NCBI GenBank assembly: GCA_019038695.1
Contig: JAHOYZ010000028.1
Span: forward strand, 12,492 to 76,491
Origin: Candidatus Zixiibacteriota bacterium
GTDB taxonomy: Bacteria; Zixibacteria; MSB-5A5; GN15; FEB-12
Length of the DNA stretch: 64,000 nt
Reading direction: 5' to 3'
In this document: positions 44,717 to 54,983 of the stretch, piece by piece
Layout: each line of letters starts with the position of its first letter
Numbering within the stretch: position 1 is the stretch's first letter
Notes under the pieces: model-generated
The model's database searches: none
Seen by the model: only the letters and a program-made list of their open reading frames with translations
Told to the model about the DNA's origin: nothing
Made by a program: the position numbers and the translations under genes

Positions 44717-44735
44717 AAACCGGCGAAGCCGGTTT
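44717..44735 (-). terminator. Hairpin at the 3' end of the 551-aa gene
   Basis: AAACCGGC-3-GCCGGTTT followed on the minus strand by a T-rich run. Confidence 0.5.
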
Positions 44736-46389
44736 AGTATAGATAGTGCGATAGTGAGACGGAGAAGCTGTACTTGCTCCCATCGGACTCATTTGCTCCA
44801 AACAAATCCTCGCTTGCGCTGTCATTCCACCCATATTTAACACTGGCGTACAAAGACGTTGGAATCGATAGACGGTAGGTTAGATTTGATGAAATGTCGA
44901 ATTGATTGCTCTCCCCCGACCAATACTCAGTGATGTATATGCGGCTCCCCCGAGATACTCTGCGAAAATCCGACGATAGCTGGTCATGGTTGTGACGGTA
45001 GTTCAATCGCGTCGACAGCGTAGTGCGGGAGTTGACAATATATGACAGAATCCCCGAGAAAGAGACATCGTATCTATCGTTGTACTCTCGGTTGATCCTG
45101 GTAGTCGTATCCACGTCATTGGTGGGCCTTTCCTCGTAAGTAACCTCCGAGTGAAGATAGTAGTGACCAACGGCATTAAAATCAATCTGCCATTGACGCC
45201 GGAAAGGGACACTATACTCCAACATTGCAGTCAAGTAAGTGTCGTTTTCCAAGTGCTTCTGATATTCATAGCTATCCACATCTGAACTACTAATGTAGAC
45301 GGTATCAATGACATTAGGGGTGTCTGGATGGTATTGAGTGCGAAGAGCTTCATTGTGCTCTGTTGACGATATGTGACGGGAATCGTGAATGTACCTTGTA
45401 CCGATCCCAACTCGTATACGGCTTCCGAACCGCCGACCTGATCTGGGGAAGTAGTCCCAGACATCCTGCACCAGGAGATAGCCGTATGGCCCCATGTCGG
45501 GAGTGTATCCTTTGGCTTGCAAGAATGAAAGAATGGCATTGAGCGCCTCGATCCGATGCAGTCGCTTATCGACGGAGTGCTGAAGGCGGTACCGGTAAAT
45601 GGTGTCACACAGAGTGAACATATGCTCGGTTGAAACCTGACCACTTAGAAGTCCTTCTTTCTGTAGTTCGTCCACCAAATACATAGCAGTGGAGGAATAT
45701 CCTCCTTCGTACATGTGACCCCAGCCGGGAGTGGCTCTGATTTCAAATGCTACAGACCGTTCATCCACATCCAGATCTTCGGATCTGACTATTTCTAAGA
45801 GGTGACGAGAGCCGCCATAATTGTTTAGATCGTGGACGTCTTTTGTCTTCCTGTGATCATTGGGAATTTCGTTGTATTGATAGCGGAAATCGAATATGGA
45901 GGAAACAAAGAAATCGCCGGAGACATACTGCCCGACATCTGCATTAGCAGACAATTCACCCCAATAGGAACTAGCAGAATTGTCTGAGTGCCGACTATCG
46001 CTATCTAGAAACTGTGTGTAGGTTTGTGACGTCTTCGAGGAGGATCGGTTTCCGGACAGTGAGAGCCCAATATCTGTAGTAAGAAAGCGCTGTGGAGTTT
46101 CGTAGCGGTAATTCATCGACGAACCAATGTCAACCCCCCTTGAATCACTGTCATTGGTCCGATCCGACACCACCTGATACGGATTGGTTGCACTGTCTAA
46201 ACTCGTGGCATCGCCACCCGACATCCCCACCGAGCCATCAACCTTCCACTGGAAATCGGTGAACTTCTCTGGTATGTAATCGCTTATCTTGAATGCTCCT
46301 GAGGCACCCCAGGCCGAGCCTGTCATCATGGAAACGATGATTAATGTCAGTAATGCGTACGGTATTTTGCTCACAATTGACCTCCCCAA
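44734..46389 (-). CDS. Hypothetical secreted or outer-membrane protein
   Basis: Signal peptide; aromatic-rich beta-strand pattern ending SLSHYLY. Confidence 0.65.
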   Translation of the reverse strand: MGRSIVSKIPYALLTLIIVSMMTGSAWGASGAFKISDYIPEKFTDFQWKVDGSVGMSGGDATSLDSATNPYQVVSDRTNDSDSRGVDIGSSMNYRYETPQRFLTTDIGLSLSGNRSSSKTSQTYTQFLDSDSRHSDNSASSYWGELSANADVGQYVSGDFFVSSIFDFRYQYNEIPNDHRKTKDVHDLNNYGGSRHLLEIVRSEDLDVDERSVAFEIRATPGWGHMYEGGYSSTAMYLVDELQKEGLLSGQVSTEHMFTLCDTIYRYRLQHSVDKRLHRIEALNAILSFLQAKGYTPDMGPYGYLLVQDVWDYFPRSGRRFGSRIRVGIGTRYIHDSRHISSTEHNEALRTQYHPDTPNVIDTVYISSSDVDSYEYQKHLENDTYLTAMLEYSVPFRRQWQIDFNAVGHYYLHSEVTYEERPTNDVDTTTRINREYNDRYDVSFSGILSYIVNSRTTLSTRLNYRHNHDQLSSDFRRVSRGSRIYITEYWSGESNQFDISSNLTYRLSIPTSLYASVKYGWNDSASEDLFGANESDGSKYSFSVSLSHYLY

Positions 46390-46534
46390 TCGTAGATCGT
46401 AATGCAGCTTGTAGTGTGCCCCCCAAAGCTGGTGGCACTGTTTCTACTCATACATCTGTAATGTGATTTTCTTTCACATCAAAGACGATTTTTTCAGCAT
46501 GGATAAGAACCTTGGTAGTGGCAAGAATGCCTGC

Positions 46535-47890
46535 CTAGTTATTGATCCCCGTTGAAGGCGCCGGTATGCGTCCCCCGCGAGCAACGAAATGATGCGATGA
46601 AAATTTCGACACCGGCATTATCGGCGCCGTCCCAAGCAGACCGCCATAGTCAACCGACTGTCCAACTATCTTACCCGGCACGGGAATAATACGCACCGCC
46701 GTAGTTTTGTTATTCACAACACCAATAGCAGCTTCATCGGCAATGATGCCGGCGATTGACTCAGCTGGTGTATCTCCCGGCACCGCTACCATATCAAGCC
46801 CGACCGAACAAACTGCGGTCATAGCCTCAAGTTTCTCAATCGAAATAGCCCCCGCCTCGACGGCACGGATCATGCCGGCATCTTCACTCACCGGAATAAA
46901 CGCACCCGATAAACCTCCGACGTACGATGATGCCATCAGTCCACCTTTCTTGACGGCGTCGTTGAGCATCATAAGAGCCGCCGTCGTGCCGTGACAACCG
47001 CATCGTTCGAGACCCATTGCTTCGAGTATGTCCGCGACGCTGTCCCCTTCGGCGGGAGTGGGAGCCAGTGACAGGTCAATGATTCCGAACGGTATGCCCA
47101 ATTTCTCAGAAACCTTGCGACCAACCATCTCGCCCATACGGGTAACTTTGAAAGCGGTCCGCTTGATCACTTCCGCCAACGCCCCAAGATCACACTGCCC
47201 TGCTTTCTTTACCGCATGAAGAACCACTCCCGGTCCGGAGATACCGACATTGATCACCGTCTCCGGCTCGGTTACGCCGTGAAACGCTCCGGCAATAAAC
47301 GGGTTGTCCTCGACCGCATTGGCGAACACGACCAGCTTACAACAACCGATTGCCTGGTCGGTTTTCTCCGCCGTCTGTTTAATGATGCGACCCATCAGGG
47401 CGATAGCATCCATATTAATCCCGGCATTGGTCGAGGCCACATTGACACTGGAACACACGCGTTGGGTGTTTGCTAAGGCATGGGGGATAGACTCTATCAA
47501 GTTACGATCTCCGACCGTCATACCTTTTTGCACAAGGGCGCTATAACCCGCCAGATAATCAATCCCGAGTTCTGCCGCGCATTGGTCGAGTGTTTCCGCA
47601 ACTGATATCATAGTTGCGACATCGTGCCCGTCGGCGACGATTGCGATTGGCGTGACGGAGATCCGTTTATTTGCGACAGGAATACCGGACTCGCATGAGA
47701 CAGTCTCAACCGTCTTGACATGGTGTTCGGCAGTCTTCAGTAGTTTCTCTCTGATATTGGCGACTAGTCGCTTGGGGTCACGACTGGCGCAGTCACGCAG
47801 GGAGATACCGAGTGTGACGGTTCTGATATCGAGGTGAGCCACCTCGGTCATGTGTATCGTTTCGGTTATTTCTTGCGGATCGTATGGCAT
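46535..47890 (-). CDS. DUF711/UPF0210 ('PFL family') protein
   Basis: [41 protein letters not shown]. Confidence 0.92.
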
Positions 47891-48046
47891 ATGTCGCTCA
47901 CTTAGAGTCTCATGTTTTTCTGTGTCGTTCCCGTAGCTCGGTCAGTCCTGCGGAGGCAGGAATCCAGCAAGCTTCATCTCTTCTCTCCAATGTCGAAACT
48001 GAAGACAGTTTCGACCTACTCAGCATATTCCTCGCAGAGTGAGTCC

Positions 48047-48634
48047 CTATATCCTATGCATATACTGGAAGGTGTCTTCGTGCATCACGTACACCTTCAT
48101 GCCCAATTGGGTCTCCGTCGCCTGAATACGATCTCGCAGGGCCGAGAAATCAATGGTACAATTCGTGATGTTGACCACCATAATCATCGAGAAAAACTCC
48201 TGCATCAGTGTCTGCGAGATATCCTCAATCGAACAACTCAACTCCGCTAATACAGCCGTAATTGCCGCCACCACCCCTGGGCGATCCTGGCCAAAGGACG
48301 CAATAATAATACGCGTCTTTTCGACTTTTTCGATCTGCTCATACAATCCCCCCTGCTGGCTCACCATCTCTTCTCCGGGAGGTAACGGCGGGGGGGGCGA
48401 AGCCCCTTTTTCCGCTTTTGGATTCAGGTCCAGATTAGAGTGCGGTCCCTCTGGGTCCGGGGTACGGGGTACTTCGCAGGTTGCCCCTGTGATCTCCGGG
48501 TTCGCCTGCTGTTTCTGCATCGCATCGACAACAGAATCAACCACCCGTCGCAACGCTTTAGCATCGAGTTGTTGCCCTACTCTTCCAGCGACAATCTCGG
48601 CGATCTTGCCGATTTCAAAATCAGATAATGACAT
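48047..48634 (-). CDS. ACT-domain protein with N-terminal helical (encapsulation-peptide-like) extension
   Basis: C-terminal GQDRPGVVAAIT..IEDISQT..FQYMHRI is the ACT type usually paired with DUF711; about 100 extra N-terminal residues. Confidence 0.85.
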   Translation of the reverse strand: MSLSDFEIGKIAEIVAGRVGQQLDAKALRRVVDSVVDAMQKQQANPEITGATCEVPRTPDPEGPHSNLDLNPKAEKGASPPPPLPPGEEMVSQQGGLYEQIEKVEKTRIIIASFGQDRPGVVAAITAVLAELSCSIEDISQTLMQEFFSMIMVVNITNCTIDFSALRDRIQATETQLGMKVYVMHEDTFQYMHRI

Positions 48635-48688
48635 CGTATATTGGACCTTCTATATATAATATCTCGTTTTCGTCACCAATCTGTTTCT

Positions 48689-48760
48689 GCAGGAGCGCAG
48701 GGCTCCTGCCCTACCAAGAACAGGCAATGCCTGCTGGATTCCTGCTTTCGCAGGAATGAC
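48689..48760. repeat. Two REP-like palindromes
   Basis: Minus strand GTAG-GGCAGGAGCCCTGCGCTCCTGC; plus strand TGGATTCCTGCTTTCGCAGGAATGAC. Confidence 0.7.
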
Positions 48761-48814
48761 AGAGCCTCGCGATAACAGGCGTCACCAGGTTTCTCATAAA
48801 CCAGGCGATACCGG

Positions 48815-49369
48815 CTACAATATATCTCGCAGCAACTCCGGTCGCGGCGATGGTATTACCACCGTGTTGACCAGCATTCCTTCCCGCGAGACAACTTCCG
48901 TCCCAGCGGCAACAGCCGATTCCACCGCGCCCACTTCACCAGTCAACGTCACAAACGCTTTTCCACCCAACGCCATCGCCAGCCGTATTTCAATCAAACG
49001 CACCTCGGCTGCTTTCACCGCCGCGTCCGCTCCTTCAATCAACGTCGCCACCGAGAACGATTCGATTATGCCGAGCGCGTCGAGTTCATCGACTTGTGTG
49101 GAACCTGACAAAGCGGGGAAAACATCCGGGTGGACATTGGGAATAATAAAGGTCTCAATGACACTCTCGGCGCCATACTCTTCCCCGGCAGCAATCGAGT
49201 TCTTTATTGCCTGAACGTCACCGGCTATGAGATTGATATATTTACCGGAACAGATCGTGCGGCTTATCACCAACTCAACGCTGGCCGCCTTGACCATCGC
49301 ATCCGCCGAGCCGATTCCTTTGGCAATCGAGCTGTATTCGATTAATCCTATCGCATTGTATTCCATCAT
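48815..49369 (-). CDS. BMC-T shell protein, PduT-like
   Basis: Two BMC domains (AIGLIEYSS; ALGIIESFS); TICSGK carries the PduT-type Fe-S Cys. Confidence 0.9.
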   Translation of the reverse strand: MMEYNAIGLIEYSSIAKGIGSADAMVKAASVELVISRTICSGKYINLIAGDVQAIKNSIAAGEEYGAESVIETFIIPNVHPDVFPALSGSTQVDELDALGIIESFSVATLIEGADAAVKAAEVRLIEIRLAMALGGKAFVTLTGEVGAVESAVAAGTEVVSREGMLVNTVVIPSPRPELLRDIL

Positions 49370-50688
49370 CAGGCCTCTATTGTAATCGCTTCGTTCACAT
49401 CAACAACCCGCCCGTTAATCGATGCGTGGATATTTGCTCCCACAGACGAGTCTGCTATTTGAGCAATCAATTGCCCTACAGTGACATTGTCACCCGGTCC
49501 TACTGTGGGTACTGAAGACGTACCCAGATGTTGTTTTAGTGGAATAATAACTCGCTCGGGGTGAACCGTATCATCGGTCCAGACAGCGGGTGTGTCATAT
49601 TGGGCCAAGCCCAGCTTGCGTGTTAATTTCTTCGTTAGCACTTTGCGATGGGCTTGCATCGGATGGGCCGCGAGCGGCCTATTGGGTGGCGTGTATTCTA
49701 TGTTCTTCAAACCTATGTTTGTCTTGGACCGAACACAGGCTTGCCTGGGGTCCAGTTCTTCCGGACAGGCATACAGCGAACAAAGATTACACTCGGAACA
49801 ATTGACCGCGAACTTGCCCCAGTAATCCTCTTTTTCTCCGGCAAATCCAAGTGATCGCATCACTTTGTGCGGCTGTATATCGTACCCAAGTAAATAGCGA
49901 GGACAATACTCGGTGCAGTAGCTACACTGATCGCACGCCGACTGGCCGATCCGCTTGATTTCCGAAATCGCAAGCGATCTTTTCCTAATGAGGTAGTGAT
50001 CTACGGGTAATACAATGTACCCCCCACTAAGCTTAGTTACCGGATTTTCAAAAGAGGGCACTCGTGCCCCCATCATTGCGCCGCCGTCGAGAACGGCAAT
50101 CTCGCCCGATATGGACGGCCCGCCAGCAAGAGCGATAACATCACTGATTGATGTCCCGATAGGCACTTTCAGTGTGACTGGATTATTAACCGCTCCCGCC
50201 ACGGTGATGAATTTCTCAGTCACCGGCACGCCGATACTGGCCAATGCTACGTTGAGCAACGTCTCGACATTGGACACGACACATCCGATATCGACCGGGT
50301 AACCACCGTACGGAATAAGTCGCCCGGTTGCTTCATAGACCAGAACGTATTCGTCACCGGCCGGATAGTGGTCGCCCATTTCAAAAATCTCAATACCGGT
50401 GCCACCAAATATCCGACGGAACTGACCGATTTGATCTTGCGCTTTTGCTTTGATCCCCAGGATACGTCGTGAAGCGCCTACGGTGTCGGCCGCGAGTTTC
50501 ATTCCTTTGTGGACTTCATCGGGAAATTGGCGCATCAATTCTTTGTCTTTATACAGCAGTGGTTCGCATTCTGCGCCATTGGCGAGTAGAACCTCTACCT
50601 GGGTATTGTACTTCAGGTGAGTAGGAAAGCCTGCCCCACCGGCCCCGACTACTCCAGCGTCACGAACTTGTTCTACAAGGGAAGGCAT
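49369..50688 (-). CDS. PduS/RnfC-like Fe-S flavoprotein
   Basis: GVVGAGGAGFPTH, NGAECEP, CDQCSYCTEYCP, CSECNLC. Confidence 0.9.
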   Translation of the reverse strand: MPSLVEQVRDAGVVGAGGAGFPTHLKYNTQVEVLLANGAECEPLLYKDKELMRQFPDEVHKGMKLAADTVGASRRILGIKAKAQDQIGQFRRIFGGTGIEIFEMGDHYPAGDEYVLVYEATGRLIPYGGYPVDIGCVVSNVETLLNVALASIGVPVTEKFITVAGAVNNPVTLKVPIGTSISDVIALAGGPSISGEIAVLDGGAMMGARVPSFENPVTKLSGGYIVLPVDHYLIRKRSLAISEIKRIGQSACDQCSYCTEYCPRYLLGYDIQPHKVMRSLGFAGEKEDYWGKFAVNCSECNLCSLYACPEELDPRQACVRSKTNIGLKNIEYTPPNRPLAAHPMQAHRKVLTKKLTRKLGLAQYDTPAVWTDDTVHPERVIIPLKQHLGTSSVPTVGPGDNVTVGQLIAQIADSSVGANIHASINGRVVDVNEAITIEA

Positions 50689-50710
50689 AGTATCAGTTGA
50701 ACCTCATGAC

Positions 50711-50875
50711 CTATAGTTCCTCAACCAGATCAGTGGCATCGCCGAAACCGAGTTGGTTGGCTCGTTCGTGCTCCCGAAGCCACCACACTATTCCCACTAT
50801 CGCCGTCACACCCAACAGGAGCCCGACGATGTGGTACCAGCGCAGATACCGCATGGCAAGTTTGATAATGCTCAT
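50711..50875 (-). CDS. 54-aa single-TM protein (not in the ORF track)
   Basis: ATG overlaps the BMC-P stop (ATGA); MSIIKLAMRYLRWYHIVGLLLGVTAIVGIVWWLREHERANQLGFGDATDLVEEL. Confidence 0.65.
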   Translation of the reverse strand: MSIIKLAMRYLRWYHIVGLLLGVTAIVGIVWWLREHERANQLGFGDATDLVEEL

Positions 50876-51198
50876 TGTAAAGCCTTCTTGAATGTTACCC
50901 GTTCCGGGTCAAGATCGCCGTTGTAGTACTCCGGTTTGATATCGTATTCATCAATGATCCCTATCACAGCCGCCTCAATCGACATATCTTCGTTGCCGAC
51001 TGCCACTCTGGCCGCCCGGCCATAAGCCACCATGACCAATTCACCTTCACCCGCACCGAGAACATCAGCGGCCACAATAGTGTCGGTGTTGGGCGCTTTG
51101 TTAAGATTATACGGCTGAATGATGAGGAACTTCGCACCGGTGGTGTTGTCTGTCTTTTGAGTCGCCCATAGTGAGCCGACCACTCTTCCAATAAACAT
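50872..51198 (-). CDS. BMC-P vertex protein (EutN/CcmL family)
   Basis: MFIGRVVGSLWATQK, VAADVLGAGEGELV, AAVIGIID. Confidence 0.93.
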   Translation of the reverse strand: MFIGRVVGSLWATQKTDNTTGAKFLIIQPYNLNKAPNTDTIVAADVLGAGEGELVMVAYGRAARVAVGNEDMSIEAAVIGIIDEYDIKPEYYNGDLDPERVTFKKALQ

Positions 51199-51202
51199 AT
51201 CT

Positions 51203-51784
51203 CTATTCCAAATCCAAAAGGTTTGATATCGCTTCTATCAGTTTCGATTTCTTGGCTTGAGAGATTTCCCGCCCTTTGAGACTCAACCCCTCTAAAGTAC
51301 GAGCATACCGTCGAAGCTCAGCGACGGTCATACTCTTCAACATCTGAGGTGTAACTTTACTCCCCGGAACATCACCTCTCGCACTGGAATCAGGTAATTT
51401 CCTTTTTCTTGAAGGACGGCCGCCACTCTGTTTAGTACCGCCTTCAGCGGCTCCCGACTCGGGATCAAGCGACGGACGGTGATCATCGGTATGATACTTT
51501 GACACAAAGCGGCGCGCAGGTAGAATTGCATCAAGACCATCGTCCGCGTTGGCAATTATCGTGACTGCCACAATTTCACCGACACGCTCCGCTGCCGCCG
51601 TCGATGCTTCGCATGCCGCCTGCACTGCTCCCAACTCACCCTCAATCCTGAGAGTGAGAAATGAAGCATCGGTTAACTCTACCGATGACACCACTATTCC
51701 GGCCGCCTTAGCGGCTGCATCGGTAGCCTCGATAGCGGCTATAAGCCCATGTGTCTCAATCAGACCCAGTGCATTTCGTGGCAT
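51203..51784 (-). CDS. BMC-H shell protein with linker and C-terminal small helical domain
   Basis: ALGLIETHGLIAAIEATDAAAKAA...GELGAVQAA; tail MTVAELRRYAR..KKSKLIEAI. Confidence 0.88.
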   Translation of the reverse strand: MPRNALGLIETHGLIAAIEATDAAAKAAGIVVSSVELTDASFLTLRIEGELGAVQAACEASTAAAERVGEIVAVTIIANADDGLDAILPARRFVSKYHTDDHRPSLDPESGAAEGGTKQSGGRPSRKRKLPDSSARGDVPGSKVTPQMLKSMTVAELRRYARTLEGLSLKGREISQAKKSKLIEAISNLLDLE

Positions 51785-51928
51785 AGTATGAAATAATACC
51801 GCATCGGATGGAAAAAGTAAATTGATTATCTATCTGATTGCGGGAAAAACACACTTGCCACTCACATTGTCGAGAAGATATCCACAATTGTGCATAATGC
51901 CACCTCGTGGTGATGCCACCTCGTGGAT

Positions 51929-51967
51929 AAAAAACGGTCACCCGTGCTCCCCTCAAGCACGGGTGAC
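51929..51967 (-). terminator. Intrinsic terminator in the BMC operon upstream region
   Basis: GTCACCCGTGCT-7-AGCACGGGTGAC-CG-TTTTTT. Confidence 0.8.
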
Positions 51968-52029
51968 AAACCGCCAAAGAGAAAAAACATTGTCCGTCTT
52001 TGAGACGGCGCTCAGGGAGTAAAATACAA
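51929..52029 (-). ncRNA. Candidate ~100-nt small RNA or attenuator leader
   Basis: Lies between a -24/-12 promoter and a strong terminator; internal CCGTCT/AGACGG hairpin; no useful ORF. Confidence 0.4.
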
Positions 52030-52039
52030 TTATAGTACG

Positions 52040-52055
52040 AGCAATCTGTGTGCCG
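52040..52055 (-). promoter_or_regulatory. Sigma54 (-24/-12) promoter candidate
   Basis: CGGCAC-ACAGA-TTGCT with correct GG-to-GC spacing; a TATAAT at 52029-52034 also allows a sigma70 reading. Confidence 0.6.
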
Positions 52056-52352
52056 TAGCCAGGGGCAGCGCCATTGAATTGCTATAACCGAGTGTTATAT
52101 AAGAAGATAACAATGCGGCCATACGGACACTGTAAGAGGTTACCATTTGCAGTTCGTACGATTGTACGAGAGGGAGAACAAAGAAAAGCGGTAAGTGCAT
52201 GATAATCACACACTTACCGCCACCAAGGAATATATGTTCACCTTCGTGCCAAAGCACGACAGGTTCATTATGTACAATGCTCACGCGCCTAATGCGACAA
52301 CAGAGCTGCCGACATTATTATAACGCTATGAACAGACTCAGCGATCAGCCGT

Positions 52353-54602
52353 TCAGTTAACGACACCTCCTTCACAGGAAATCCCGTATCTCTTTAGTTT
52401 GGTGCGAACGGTTGCCTCGTGAATCCCGAGTATCCGAGCCGCTCTGGATTTGTTGCCGCCCGATGCAAGCAACGCCTCATTTATGAGCCTCCGTTCGAAT
52501 TGCTCTACGCGCTCAAATAGAGATTTCTCACCCCGAGGTTGGTCTGCGGAAAAAATCGACCGCGACAACTCGATGAGGTCTCCTTCGGTTACCATCGCCG
52601 CCATCACTTCCAATCGTTTGATCTTGTTGACCAACTCGCGGACGTTTCCGGGCCAGTCATACTTGACAAACAGATGAACCAGTTCTGTCGGTATTTTCCC
52701 GTCATCAGTCAGACTGCATTGGCTCAGGAAGTGATTTAGCAATAACGGGATATCCTCTTTTCGTCGTTTGAGCGACGGAATGTGGAAGCTAATTCCGCTG
52801 ATTCGATAGAACAAATCACGACGGAAACTCCCTTTCTCAACCATCAGTTCCAGATTCTGGTTGGTTGCCGACACTAGCAGGATGTCCAGTTTGATCTCAG
52901 TAGTGGACCCGATTGGGATTACCCGACGAGTTTCCAGAACGCCAAGCAGCTTACTCTGCAACGAGAGTGGCAGGTCACCTATCTCGTCGAGATAAAGCAC
53001 TCCGCCGTTGGCCGAGGTCAGCAATCCCGGTTTGTCCTTGTCAGCACCCGTAAAAGCACCCTTGTGATAGCCGAACAACTCGGATTCAAGCAGAGTTTCG
53101 GGTATTGAAGCGCAGTTTACCGCCACAAAGGGACCATCGGGTCGGACCACGGAACGGAAATACCGCGCCATGTGATCCTTGCCGGTGCCAGTCTGACCGG
53201 TGAGCATCATCGGTAGATTCGAACGGCCGATTAGCGACAGCTGTTTTTTAAAGCTCTCGATCTCCGGGCAGGAAGTGAGAAACTCTGCCTTGCCGGCATT
53301 GCTGGTCGGTGCCTGATTGAGCTTATTTTGGTCGAGATCAGAATCTGTATCGGCGATCAGTCGCTGGATACGATCGACAACGTTGGTGATACCATCACGT
53401 CGATAAAACTCCTCAGCCCGGAAGAGATAGGTCAGTCGCTGACGCCGGGTGAATACTTTCGTCCGACCAGCGGCAATCAGAGTCTCCGCCTGAGCCACGC
53501 AAATACCGGATTCTGCCAACAGATCAAGCGATCTGCCATAATGATTGCGTGCATCCGACTCGTTGTCCTGAATCTCGGCAACCTGAGCTCTCAGACGCCA
53601 GAGCGCGCCAACTTCTTCGGTCACACCAGCCTTGTCCATAATGACCATAGCCCGCGCCACATAGCGCTGCGCCATCGGTAAGTTGCTCGACAAAACGGCA
53701 ACTTCGGCCAGATGCCTGAGCACACGACCGGTCAGAGTGGTCTCCGGATCGATCTTCTCGGTTATTGCCAAGGCCTGTTCAAGAATATCCCTAGCCGCAC
53801 CTAATTCGCCGGAGCGATATTTCAGTTCGCCAAGATAAGTCAGGTACATAACCTCATCGCGACGACAGTCGCATTGAACCAGTTGCTCACGAGCATTGTT
53901 GAGAGCGATTTCTGCGTCATCGAATCGGTCAGTCAGAATGTGAACATAGCCCAGCGACATATAAGCCCGGGGCAGCTCCTGAGTCTGACCGAGTTCTTCC
54001 GATAGTTCGATATTGATCTGCAAGTGACTACAGGCTTTTTCAAAATCTCCTACAAATGTGTGAATACGACCAATGTTACCCATCATGAAGGCCAGCTTGT
54101 GGCGATCATTGAGTCGACGGGCAATGTCTACTGCATCCATAAGGACGGTCAGAGCTTGGCTGAAGTCCGACTGCTTAAAAAACAGTCCGGCTAACAGGTT
54201 GAGCGCCCGACTCTGTCCCTCGGGACAGTCATTCCTGCGGAAAATTGATTCCGCATCACGAAAGGCCTTTTCCGCTTCCCTTAGTTCTCCCAGGTTGCGT
54301 AGTATCCCCCCGATTACTACAAAAGTTTCCGCCAATTCACGGCTGTCGCCAAACTCCGCCTGGAGAGTTTGAGCCGTTCGGGCGGTTCGCAACGCAACCG
54401 GGTAATCTGCGAGGGAAGCATAGGCCGTGGCGGCGAGACGCATAACTAGCGCCGCGCCCGGGCCGCCAGCACAGTCCAGTTCACTACGATTGTCCTCGTA
54501 GCAACTGATTGCGCTGGCGAAATCCCGCGAGGTAATCAATGACTCAAGATAGTGAGCCATTGCCTCGTGTATTCCACTGGCATTGTTTTCCATTTTCCTC
54601 AT
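52353..54602 (-). CDS. TPR-containing sigma54-dependent activator (bEBP, Fis-type HTH)
   Basis: N-terminal TPR-like helices; GQTGTGKD, ELFGYHKGAFTGA, LYLDEIG, WPGNVREL, GGNKSRAARILGI; no receiver domain. Confidence 0.93.
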   Translation of the reverse strand: MRKMENNASGIHEAMAHYLESLITSRDFASAISCYEDNRSELDCAGGPGAALVMRLAATAYASLADYPVALRTARTAQTLQAEFGDSRELAETFVVIGGILRNLGELREAEKAFRDAESIFRRNDCPEGQSRALNLLAGLFFKQSDFSQALTVLMDAVDIARRLNDRHKLAFMMGNIGRIHTFVGDFEKACSHLQINIELSEELGQTQELPRAYMSLGYVHILTDRFDDAEIALNNAREQLVQCDCRRDEVMYLTYLGELKYRSGELGAARDILEQALAITEKIDPETTLTGRVLRHLAEVAVLSSNLPMAQRYVARAMVIMDKAGVTEEVGALWRLRAQVAEIQDNESDARNHYGRSLDLLAESGICVAQAETLIAAGRTKVFTRRQRLTYLFRAEEFYRRDGITNVVDRIQRLIADTDSDLDQNKLNQAPTSNAGKAEFLTSCPEIESFKKQLSLIGRSNLPMMLTGQTGTGKDHMARYFRSVVRPDGPFVAVNCASIPETLLESELFGYHKGAFTGADKDKPGLLTSANGGVLYLDEIGDLPLSLQSKLLGVLETRRVIPIGSTTEIKLDILLVSATNQNLELMVEKGSFRRDLFYRISGISFHIPSLKRRKEDIPLLLNHFLSQCSLTDDGKIPTELVHLFVKYDWPGNVRELVNKIKRLEVMAAMVTEGDLIELSRSIFSADQPRGEKSLFERVEQFERRLINEALLASGGNKSRAARILGIHEATVRTKLKRYGISCEGGVVN

Positions 54603-54614
54603 CGCGTGTTACCC

Positions 54615-54983
54615 TTAATTACTGGAAGTTGTGGTCGCGGATTGTCCAATCTCCTCGTTCAAAGTACCGGTCTCCCCGGAAATATCATCTGAAATAGTGA
54701 TATCATCTTTGGGGTCATCAACGAACCAGATATTGATGATGAATTTCCACAGGAAAACATCATAGATGTTATTGCCTGCGATACAACCAAGTTCGCCTCC
54801 CCCGGATGAGGAAATTATGACCGAACCTCCATCCCAGACACTCTCACCACCCCACGGGTGGTCGTCGCCAGTTCCGTCAATTGCTCTGTATCCTTGAGGA
54901 TTCTGACGCGCTTCGGTATTACCGAGCGGAATTGCAATTAGTATCAGCACTACGGCCAATACAAAGATCAGTTGCTTCATCAC
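54615..54983 (-). CDS. Small secreted protein (candidate signalling pro-peptide)
   Basis: AGGAG RBS; signal peptide ending TEA; DDHPWGGE motif; ends 12 bp before the bEBP start. Confidence 0.7.
   Translation of the reverse strand: MMKQLIFVLAVVLILIAIPLGNTEARQNPQGYRAIDGTGDDHPWGGESVWDGGSVIISSSGGGELGCIAGNNIYDVFLWKFIINIWFVDDPKDDITISDDISGETGTLNEEIGQSATTTSSN

Follow-up and report, generated by a model that had tools for sequence, protein, structure and literature searches.

The locus described here lies at positions 46535-51784 of a 64,000-nucleotide stretch (the window) of contig JAHOYZ010000028.1 from assembly GCA_019038695.1, a Candidatus Zixiibacteriota bacterium. It encodes shell proteins of a bacterial microcompartment (BMC) next to an ACT-domain protein and a DUF711 protein, which correspond to the protein pair GlyXS and GlyXL. 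With a probability of about 0.68, the locus belongs to a minimal metabolosome-type BMC that is encoded at two genomic loci, has GlyXS/GlyXL as signature cargo and is patchily distributed in the Zixibacteria and a few neighbouring lineages. Encapsulation of the pair is likely, judging from alignments and structure models of the GlyXS protein, which carries an N-terminal extension with the layout of an encapsulation peptide.

Seven co-directional open reading frames (ORFs) on the minus strand fill the locus, and six of them have Pfam matches. From the upstream end these are a 193-aa BMC-H with a 100-aa tail (51203-51784; Pfam BMC domain at residues 5-79, E 4e-15), the vertex protein BMC-P (50872-51198; EutN_CcmL, E 6e-27), a 54-aa single-pass membrane protein without a Pfam match (50711-50875), a PduS-like flavin/Fe-S oxidoreductase (49369-50688; Complex1_51K with E 5e-42, SLBB, Fer4_17 and RnfC_N), a PduT-like BMC-T with a pore cysteine (48815-49369; tandem BMC, E 2e-45), the 195-aa ACT protein (48047-48634; ACT_6 at residues 108-182 only, E 4e-14) and DUF711 (GlyXL, UPF0210; 46535-47890; PF05167, E 5e-185). 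An initial annotation of the window had read the same run of an extended BMC-H, BMC-P, a small transmembrane ORF, PduS-like, PduT-like, ACT and DUF711 genes, and all seven were recovered. It had also noted the lack of a signature enzyme. This stands for the locus and its flanks, where the Pfam scan found no aldehyde dehydrogenase, alcohol dehydrogenase, phosphotransacylase (PTAC), aldolase or glycyl-radical enzyme, but not for the genome, which encodes an aldehyde dehydrogenase (AldDH) of the EutE/PduP type on another contig (C11).

GlyXL and the tagged GlyXS

The pair was named GlyXL/GlyXS by Price et al. ('GapMind 2026', PLoS Genet 12 Nov 2026, PMC13759103; bioRxiv 10.1101/2024.10.14.618325). 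GlyXL is the catalytic protein, with PDB entry 2HA9 as the member from Streptococcus pneumoniae, and GlyXS, an ACT protein of PF13740, is regulatory. Randomly barcoded transposon sequencing (RB-TnSeq) revealed that Bifidobacterium breve and Methanococcus maripaludis depend on both genes when glycine is not supplied; glyoxylate was proposed as product of GlyXL from a transaminase requirement and from docking, with a predicted glyoxylate pocket of R22, R75, E339 and R403 in B. breve numbering. GlyXL works aerobically and without catalytic glycine or cysteine residues. Microcompartments are not mentioned in that study (PMC13759103), and a literature search yielded no paper coupling DUF711 with microcompartments. 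The DUF711 fold belongs to the ten-stranded barrel superfamily of ribonucleotide reductase (RNR) and pyruvate formate-lyase (PFL)-like enzymes (PMC4390871).

The DUF711 protein of the window aligned with 2HA9 over its full length (4-448 against 3-443, E 5e-164), scored 712 bits against NF003700 (cut-off 440) and was found by tblastn as a single genomic copy. Residues R23, R76, E336 and R400 were invariant in 46 DUF711 sequences; they are probably the pocket of Price et al., matched to R22/R75/E339/R403 by similar numbering and not by a direct alignment to the B. breve protein. Only two positions were fixed differently in the BMC-linked copies, thus GlyXL seems to have stayed as it was, the change lying in the tag of its partner GlyXS. 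The ACT gene lies 156 bp upstream of DUF711 on the same strand, which is the adjacent S-then-L order of the described pair, and its ACT part corresponds to the whole of the 91-aa S. pneumoniae protein 1ZPV. The window GlyXS differs from the described one by a 107-aa tag and linker, and the pair is located inside a BMC operon with PduS/PduT. A glycyl-radical reading of DUF711 was rejected on the literature; the protein matched PF05167 only, and neither a glycyl-radical domain (PF01228) in it nor a radical-SAM gene in the locus was found. The source genome also has glyA. Together with the patchy distribution in the phylum this indicates that the pair in the window probably does not serve housekeeping glycine synthesis.

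The ACT protein is about twice as long as the usual 90 aa, and 107 residues precede the ACT domain. Homologs formed 114 clusters, most of them spanning the whole query, so that the extension is not an artefact of ORF calling. Three parts were distinguished. Residues 1-42 (48509-48634, minus strand) are an encapsulation-peptide-like module, for which AlphaFold2 (AF2) predicted helices at 5-19 and 25-42; the hydrophobic moment peaks at 0.76 for residues 26-39. Residues 43 to approximately 100 (48335-48508) form a Pro/Ser/Gln-rich linker, predicted to be disordered from 44 to 88 with a predicted local distance difference test (pLDDT) score of 42-57. The GlyXS-type ACT domain (UPF0237) follows with the stop codon (48047-48334); it was modelled as a confident ACT fold, its residues 108-195 align with 5-91 of 1ZPV (E 3e-12), and NF001220 matched 107-195 with profile positions 2-90 of 90. 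In the alignment an N-terminal block of about 50 aa is conserved (MSLSDFEIGKIAEIVAGKxGxxLDAKALRxVIDxVVDxL...NPEIxGATCEV), the linker length varies widely among 23 homologs with total lengths of 177-252 aa, and the most divergent relatives, too, retain the first tag helix (LSxxEIxxIxxxVxxR). Two helices, a variable linker and a complete domain suggest the architecture of an encapsulation peptide, as far as alignments and models can tell. In the main clade the module ends with the motif NPEIxGATCEV (residues 45-53; 48476-48502), whose Thr-Cys is invariant; the divergent clade lacks this motif. A profile of the module, searched against 1.84 billion representative proteins, matched ACT proteins of this kind only, and the possibility that other enzyme families share the tag was therefore rejected.

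Conservation of the locus and a second shell locus

Synteny was read by tblastn at 54 loci, with one genome per species. Wherever the contig allowed, full-length (extended) ACT proteins were found in the context of shell, PduS, PduT and DUF711 genes in approximately 27 species genomes, one of them with a split locus. The recurrent order was activator, BMC-H with tail, BMC-P, PduS, PduT, ACT and, after 0-2.4 kb, DUF711; annotated contigs agreed with this order. The gene arrangement is far beyond chance, since the same order recurs in some 27 species-level genomes. The records are labelled Zixibacteria, GN15, 'Ignavibacteriales' metagenome-assembled genomes (MAGs) and Calditrichaeota, to which a divergent clade is added. 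Two loci deviated, one without PduS/PduT (L030) and one without a shell gene in the 10 kb upstream (L025). The linkage of ACT/DUF711 to shell genes, which the initial annotation had put up for test, was retained in relatives down to 37-47% ACT identity. About 22 pairs of a short (~90-aa) ACT protein and DUF711 from Lentisphaerota, Clostridia, Acidobacteriota and Ignavibacteria had no shell gene within 10 kb. Across extended and short ACT proteins the tag thus appears, by sequence, to track the shell. Clustering of the ORFs within 10 kb on both sides of 28 loci gave seven recurrent clusters, namely an exported protein, the activator, BMC-domain genes (BMC-H with tail and PduT together), BMC-P, PduS, ACT and DUF711. 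Acidobacterial homologs of the ACI type were considered and rejected: the acidobacterial-labelled locus L041 is a decaying copy, and its homologs are the divergent Zixibacteria clade.

The phylum was surveyed with extended ACT, DUF711 and BMC-P as markers in 285 genomes, of which 42, 53 and 63, respectively, had a match. In the family of the window (f1), 32 genomes had a single BMC-P, 30 had DUF711 and 28 had both, that is 28 of the 34 holding either. The six discordant genomes are incomplete MAGs (72-89% complete), and the two genomes from the same genus as the source genome lacked all three markers. Other Zixibacteria families have BMC-P triplets without DUF711, which represent other BMC types. 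In the Zixibacteria family f14 (G231-G249), 12 genomes have a DUF711 that is divergent (E ~1e-100 to the Pfam model) and roughly 400 aa long, and they have neither extended ACT nor BMC-P. The DUF711 tree held two BMC-linked clades: the larger one with 20 rows (19 BMC-linked and one cut contig; support 100/99) and the smaller one with four rows (three BMC-linked and one cut contig; support 100/100). Despite the two groups, a single origin of BMC-linked DUF711 may be considered on the basis of the sequences.

The source genome (3.28 Mb, 58 contigs, 96% complete) contains four PF00936 domains and one PF03319 domain, and its shell genes are located at two loci only. The inventory called for by the initial annotation thus added one BMC domain to the window, a BMC-H on contig C11, and the BMC-P of the window was the single match in the genome search. 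The window BMC-H lacks the PRPH edge motif and reads ANADDG there. The 93-aa BMC-H of C11 is the only canonical one in the genome, with K25 and PRPH. It is directly followed by a 496-aa acylating AldDH of the EutE/PduP type, which scored 599 bits against NF011927 (cut-off 403) and had the BMC AldDH of R. palustris, 5JFL, as best PDB match (E 2e-123). Its N-terminus SVDEIVRLVLAEI is followed by a Ser/Thr/Pro-rich linker, by sequence a textbook layout of an encapsulation peptide (EP). In 15 of 16 relatives' genomes the lone canonical BMC-H precedes an AldDH with 63-80% identity, and the number of BMC domains was constant at four in each of the 16. All 16 AldDHs, that of the source genome included, begin with VEDIVRLVLDEI-type helices followed by a P/S/T linker of 25-70 aa. 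Facet hexamer (C11) and the only vertex protein (window) are encoded at different loci, therefore the two loci must build one organelle; with one BMC-P, one DUF711 and one ACT protein in the genome, this is a single organelle around the only GlyXL. A satellite locus had been one option of the initial annotation for the window. The assignment is reversed: the window is the main locus and the BMC-H with the EP-tagged AldDH on C11 is the satellite.

No third conserved gene was present at the satellite locus in 16 genomes. A 412-aa ORF after the AldDH was rejected as cargo, being conserved in none of 15 relatives. In 10 of 16 genomes the satellite BMC-H/AldDH is immediately preceded by a gene for an HTH_11-WYL-WCX regulator (for example L070:5796-6830; the satellite loci of the relatives are L065-L078), which is absent there in the source genome, and in three genomes a gene of the DJ-1/PfpI (glyoxalase III-like) kind comes after the AldDH (L070:9020-9592).

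The PduS-PduT redox module looks intact by sequence, as the pore cysteine and the Fe-S cysteines are invariant: all eight Cys of the two 4Fe-4S motifs of PduS were conserved in 22 of 22 orthologs, and the pore Cys of PduT (RTICSGK) in 15 of 15. Against TIGR02526 eut_PduT the window protein scored 135 bits (E 3e-39), below the cut-off of 250, and is hence PduT-like and not an ortholog. The family alignment of the tailed BMC-H showed a conserved RYVSKYHPxDxRPPL, then a variable linker and then a conserved tail (MTVxELRxxARxL..KGREISxANKxQLIDAI). In the AF2 model the tail at 146-189 had a pLDDT of 85-96, the linker below 50. Residues 99-193 (51203-51490) thus end in a confidently folded 45-aa helix-extended-helix domain like the SAP, Rho_N and LEM nucleic-acid-binding motifs; profile matches were to Rho_N in 11 of 20 members and to SAP in 6 of 20, all below threshold. 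With this modelled fold, the tail might anchor the organelle to DNA or RNA. It is reminiscent of EutK and of the tail termed 'EutK-like' in the FRAG1 type of the BMC catalogue (Sutter et al., Nat Commun 2021, PMC8217296).

Proposed organelle and competing explanations

In the organelle that we propose, the 93-aa canonical BMC-H from C11 would form the facets and the single BMC-P would cap the vertices. The PduT-type trimer would carry a [4Fe-4S] site in its pore, and the tailed BMC-H would be a minor component with its SAP/HeH-like tail facing the cytosol. The AldDH of C11 would be cargo by its N-terminal encapsulation peptide. GlyXS would have gained an N-terminal targeting module of two helices, attached by a flexible linker, that binds the lumen of the shell, and the tagged GlyXS probably carries the untagged GlyXL into the lumen, analogous to PduD carrying PduC/E. 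PduS probably docks on PduT. The chemistry is the least certain part: GlyXL-GlyXS would form the aldehyde glyoxylate inside the shell, the AldDH would trap it as CoA thioester under reduction of NAD+, and PduS-PduT would carry the electrons across the shell. Expression would be tied to the adjacent TPR/sigma-54 activator and to a conserved, putatively sigma-54-driven RNA. Given that the system is patchily distributed, that glyA is present and that the regulator is of an inducible type, its role would be accessory, probably catabolic or detoxifying.

Several observations weigh against this organelle. The PduL-type PTAC (PF06130) is absent from the 96%-complete genome, so that the metabolosome core is incomplete and the recycling of CoA unexplained. 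Oxalyl-CoA decarboxylase and malate synthase were not found in the genome either, leaving the fate of an oxalyl-CoA product unexplained. GlyXL has no tag of its own and its complex with GlyXS is inferred; glyoxylate as product was itself predicted on genetic grounds and by docking (Price et al., PMC13759103), and glyA is present. The spacer between ACT and DUF711 is an insertion hot spot, holding 0-2.4 kb of unrelated genes in relatives. Some lineages keep BMC-H/PduS/PduT and a tagged, degenerate ACT protein with no DUF711 in the genome, so that an independent role of the tagged ACT protein, related to the shell or to PduS/T, is conceivable. In one genome the pair is decaying: ACT is interrupted by an in-frame stop, and 59 aa are left of DUF711. 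At L025 a tagged ACT and DUF711 occur although the 10 kb upstream hold no shell gene.

A route from oxalyl-CoA to formyl-CoA is unsupported, given that PduL PTAC, oxalyl-CoA decarboxylase and malate synthase are all absent. The oxalyl-CoA decarboxylase model matched thiamine pyrophosphate (TPP) enzyme homologs in 14 of 14 control genomes and none in the source genome, which suggests that the latter has no acetolactate-synthase-type TPP enzyme. The ACT-DUF711 spacer is 156 bp long in the window (47891-48046), and in relatives it is a mid-operon hot spot whose inserts include HD with HD_assoc, an Rx4H HEPN-like protein and several membrane proteins (L007:10704-11561, L017:10578-11875, L029:10658-12483 and others). 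In five loci the insert consists of a SecB-like gene, HicB and a small ORF on the opposite strand, the layout of a TAC-type toxin-antitoxin system. As extra cargo the genes in the spacer were rejected, for they are unrelated from relative to relative. In Zixibacteria without DUF711, a reduced module of BMC-H with tail, PduS, PduT and a 149-aa protein of tag and degenerate ACT lies behind prmC (L080:7590-10450, L081:6737-9624); L083 and L084 are fuller versions at the same prmC-adjacent site.

Three other explanations of the locus were weighed. In the first, the tagged ACT protein would not be an adaptor but would partner the shell or PduS-PduT in structure or regulation, for instance as a gate that senses a ligand, with GlyXL in the cytosol and an adjacency inherited from an ancestral glyXS-glyXL operon. 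The RBG_16_53_22-type Zixibacteria, with BMC-H/PduS/PduT and a tag on a degenerate ACT in genomes without DUF711, speak for it, as do the toxin-antitoxin or defence-like genes inserted between ACT and DUF711 in relatives; the catalogue also knows a BMC-specific ACT protein (FRAG4) and an ACT hidden Markov model (HMM; ACI/MIC3) and does not mention DUF711. We nevertheless regard it as unlikely, because DUF711 and BMC-P occur together in 28 of the 34 genomes of family f1 and are lost together, L030 and L083 keep shell genes, ACT and DUF711 without PduS/PduT, the ACT domain is still that of a full, well-conserved GlyXS, and GlyXL is the only copy in the genome and nearly unchanged. The probability is lower again that the locus merely supplies shell and redox module to an AldDH metabolosome whose true aldehyde-forming enzyme is encoded elsewhere, with ACT-DUF711 as bystanders. 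That AldDH and canonical BMC-H sit at a different locus would fit, and BMCs of the FRAG type do scatter their parts over several loci. However, shell genes were found at two genome loci only, a genome-wide HMM scan with both tags (ACT and AldDH) revealed no further tagged protein, the satellite had no third conserved gene in 16 genomes, and the ACT tag exists in BMC genomes only.

Very improbable, finally, is the explanation that the locus is an already described type of the catalogue (FRAG1, FRAG4 or ACI/MIC3-like) and new only as an annotation. The ACT protein of FRAG4 has a BMC-specific N-terminal domain, and FRAG1 has a BMC-H with EutK-like ordered tail and PduS/T pairs. Yet the defining feature of every FRAG type is a BMC-P triplet and the source genome has one BMC-P, FRAG4 is restricted to Marinimicrobia, no type in the catalogue lists DUF711, and PF05167 is neither among its HMMs nor in its text (Sutter et al., PMC8217296). 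Zixibacteria shell proteins appear in its trees as 'fragmented (sat) (omitted)' (Supplementary Data 2), and one such entry is a PduT gene adjoining a degenerate ACT protein. An uncharacterised BMC type with ACT-DUF711 as possible cargo, the other option of the initial annotation, is hence the one we favour, as no named type of the 2021 catalogue matches.

Regulation, neighbouring genes and comparison with known systems

Upstream of the locus on the same strand lie a 749-aa sigma-54 enhancer-binding protein with a TPR sensor (52353-54602; TPR_12/TPR_MalT, Sigma54_activat with E 3e-57, HTH_8) and, upstream of it, a small exported protein of 122 aa with a signal-peptide-like N-terminus (54615-54983). 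Of 28 related loci, 17 had the activator gene immediately before BMC-H; in 13 of the 28 clustered BMC-type loci an ortholog of the exported protein came immediately before the activator. No activator occurs in the divergent clade, whose loci are found behind prfA-prmC. A putative sigma-54 -24/-12 promoter, CGGCAC-N5-TTGCT (52040-52055, minus strand), was read from the sequence 271 nt upstream of the BMC-H ATG; among 19 related loci scanned, 10 had the same element approximately 200-270 nt upstream of the BMC-H ATG, and two others had it at a distance of 1.4-1.6 kb upstream. It is followed by a conserved RNA of about 100 nt (51928-52029, minus strand) with a 5' ACUCCC, a hairpin, a CU-rich tract and a hairpin with GAGGGGA loop, ending in an intrinsic terminator (51937-51967, minus strand) which the terminator scan recorded as a 13-bp stem and a U-run. 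Alignment and folds of 10 loci showed the motifs and the second hairpin to be conserved, and Rfam gave no family match on 46300-52400 with E up to 1. The RNA may be a small RNA or an attenuating leader of the BMC operon. A putative sigma-70-like promoter, TTTACT-N17-TATTAT (51793-51821, minus strand), was detected by the promoter scan 8 nt before the BMC-H ATG; its TTTACTTT and TAT(T/C)AT blocks are conserved in the 10-locus alignment. Between the RNA terminator and this promoter the palindrome CCACGAGGTGG occurs in two copies 16 bp apart (51900-51926) and is not conserved in the aligned relatives.

The 54-aa membrane protein has one hydrophobic span and is laid out as an R/KWY(Y/H) motif, a transmembrane helix and an acidic tail. 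Of 22 loci scanned, the window included, 17 have a membrane ORF of 46-63 aa and of this layout between BMC-P and PduS; L029, L032, L036, L038 and L062 lack it. Directly downstream of DUF711 follows a 551-aa protein (44734-46389) with a signal-peptide-like start, without Pfam or NCBIfam match and not conserved in related loci, and then the genes kdsA-kdsC-kdsD-lpxL-lptC. A search for an empty site in genome G047 of the same genus, over 14 kb upstream of kdsA, showed no gene in common with the window and thus gave no boundaries for the module.

Many catalogued BMC types of uncultivated phyla have no known substrate, and the locus offers a candidate signature enzyme and a defined targeting tag. 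Whether GlyXS/GlyXL is the missing signature enzyme of the whole set of 'shell-only' or incomplete-core BMCs of uncultivated bacteria, confining glyoxylate, is a tentative generalization to which we give somewhat less than even odds. The GlyXL-GlyXS pair is present in about 885 genera; genetic support for glycine synthesis was shown only this year, and substrate and product are unproven. If the proposed organelle is real, it would be the first of the metabolosomes to have a non-radical enzyme of the RNR/PFL barrel superfamily at its core, and encapsulation with an acylating AldDH would be independent support for an aldehyde product of GlyXL. The recruitment to an AldDH organelle suggests a coupled AldDH/NADH assay for GlyXL-GlyXS. 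The minimal shell of one BMC-H, one tailed BMC-H, one BMC-T and one BMC-P, together with the two-helix tag, provides potential engineering parts.

Among known systems, the FRAG types and the omitted loci of the catalogue resemble the window system in that their parts are distributed over more than one locus and that they occur in candidate phyla of the FCB group. FRAG4 shares with it an ACT protein whose N-terminal domain is BMC-specific, and FRAG1 a BMC-H with ordered C-terminal tail and a PduS/PduT pair. The window system differs from the FRAG types by one BMC-P in place of the green/grey/orange triplet, a single BMC-P being the rule in all BMC-positive genomes of family f1, which sets them outside the FRAG definition, and by the presence of an EP-tagged AldDH. 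Common to it and the glycyl-radical enzyme microcompartments GRM1-6 are an acylating AldDH, for which 5JFL, the BMC AldDH of R. palustris, is the closest match, and the PduS/PduT pair, but it has no glycyl-radical domain, no activating radical-SAM enzyme and no PTAC. The Pdu and Eut systems likewise have an amphipathic N-terminal helix with a poorly conserved linker on the AldDH and on the small subunit of the (here candidate) signature enzyme, an untagged large subunit that presumably piggy-backs, and the conserved PduT pore Cys and PduS Fe-S motifs. In contrast to them, the window system is without B12 enzyme, PduL, alcohol dehydrogenase and cobalamin-recycling genes, and its ACT tag has two helices and occurs on no other protein family. 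Measured against these systems, a GlyXS/GlyXL organelle would be an undescribed type of microcompartment.

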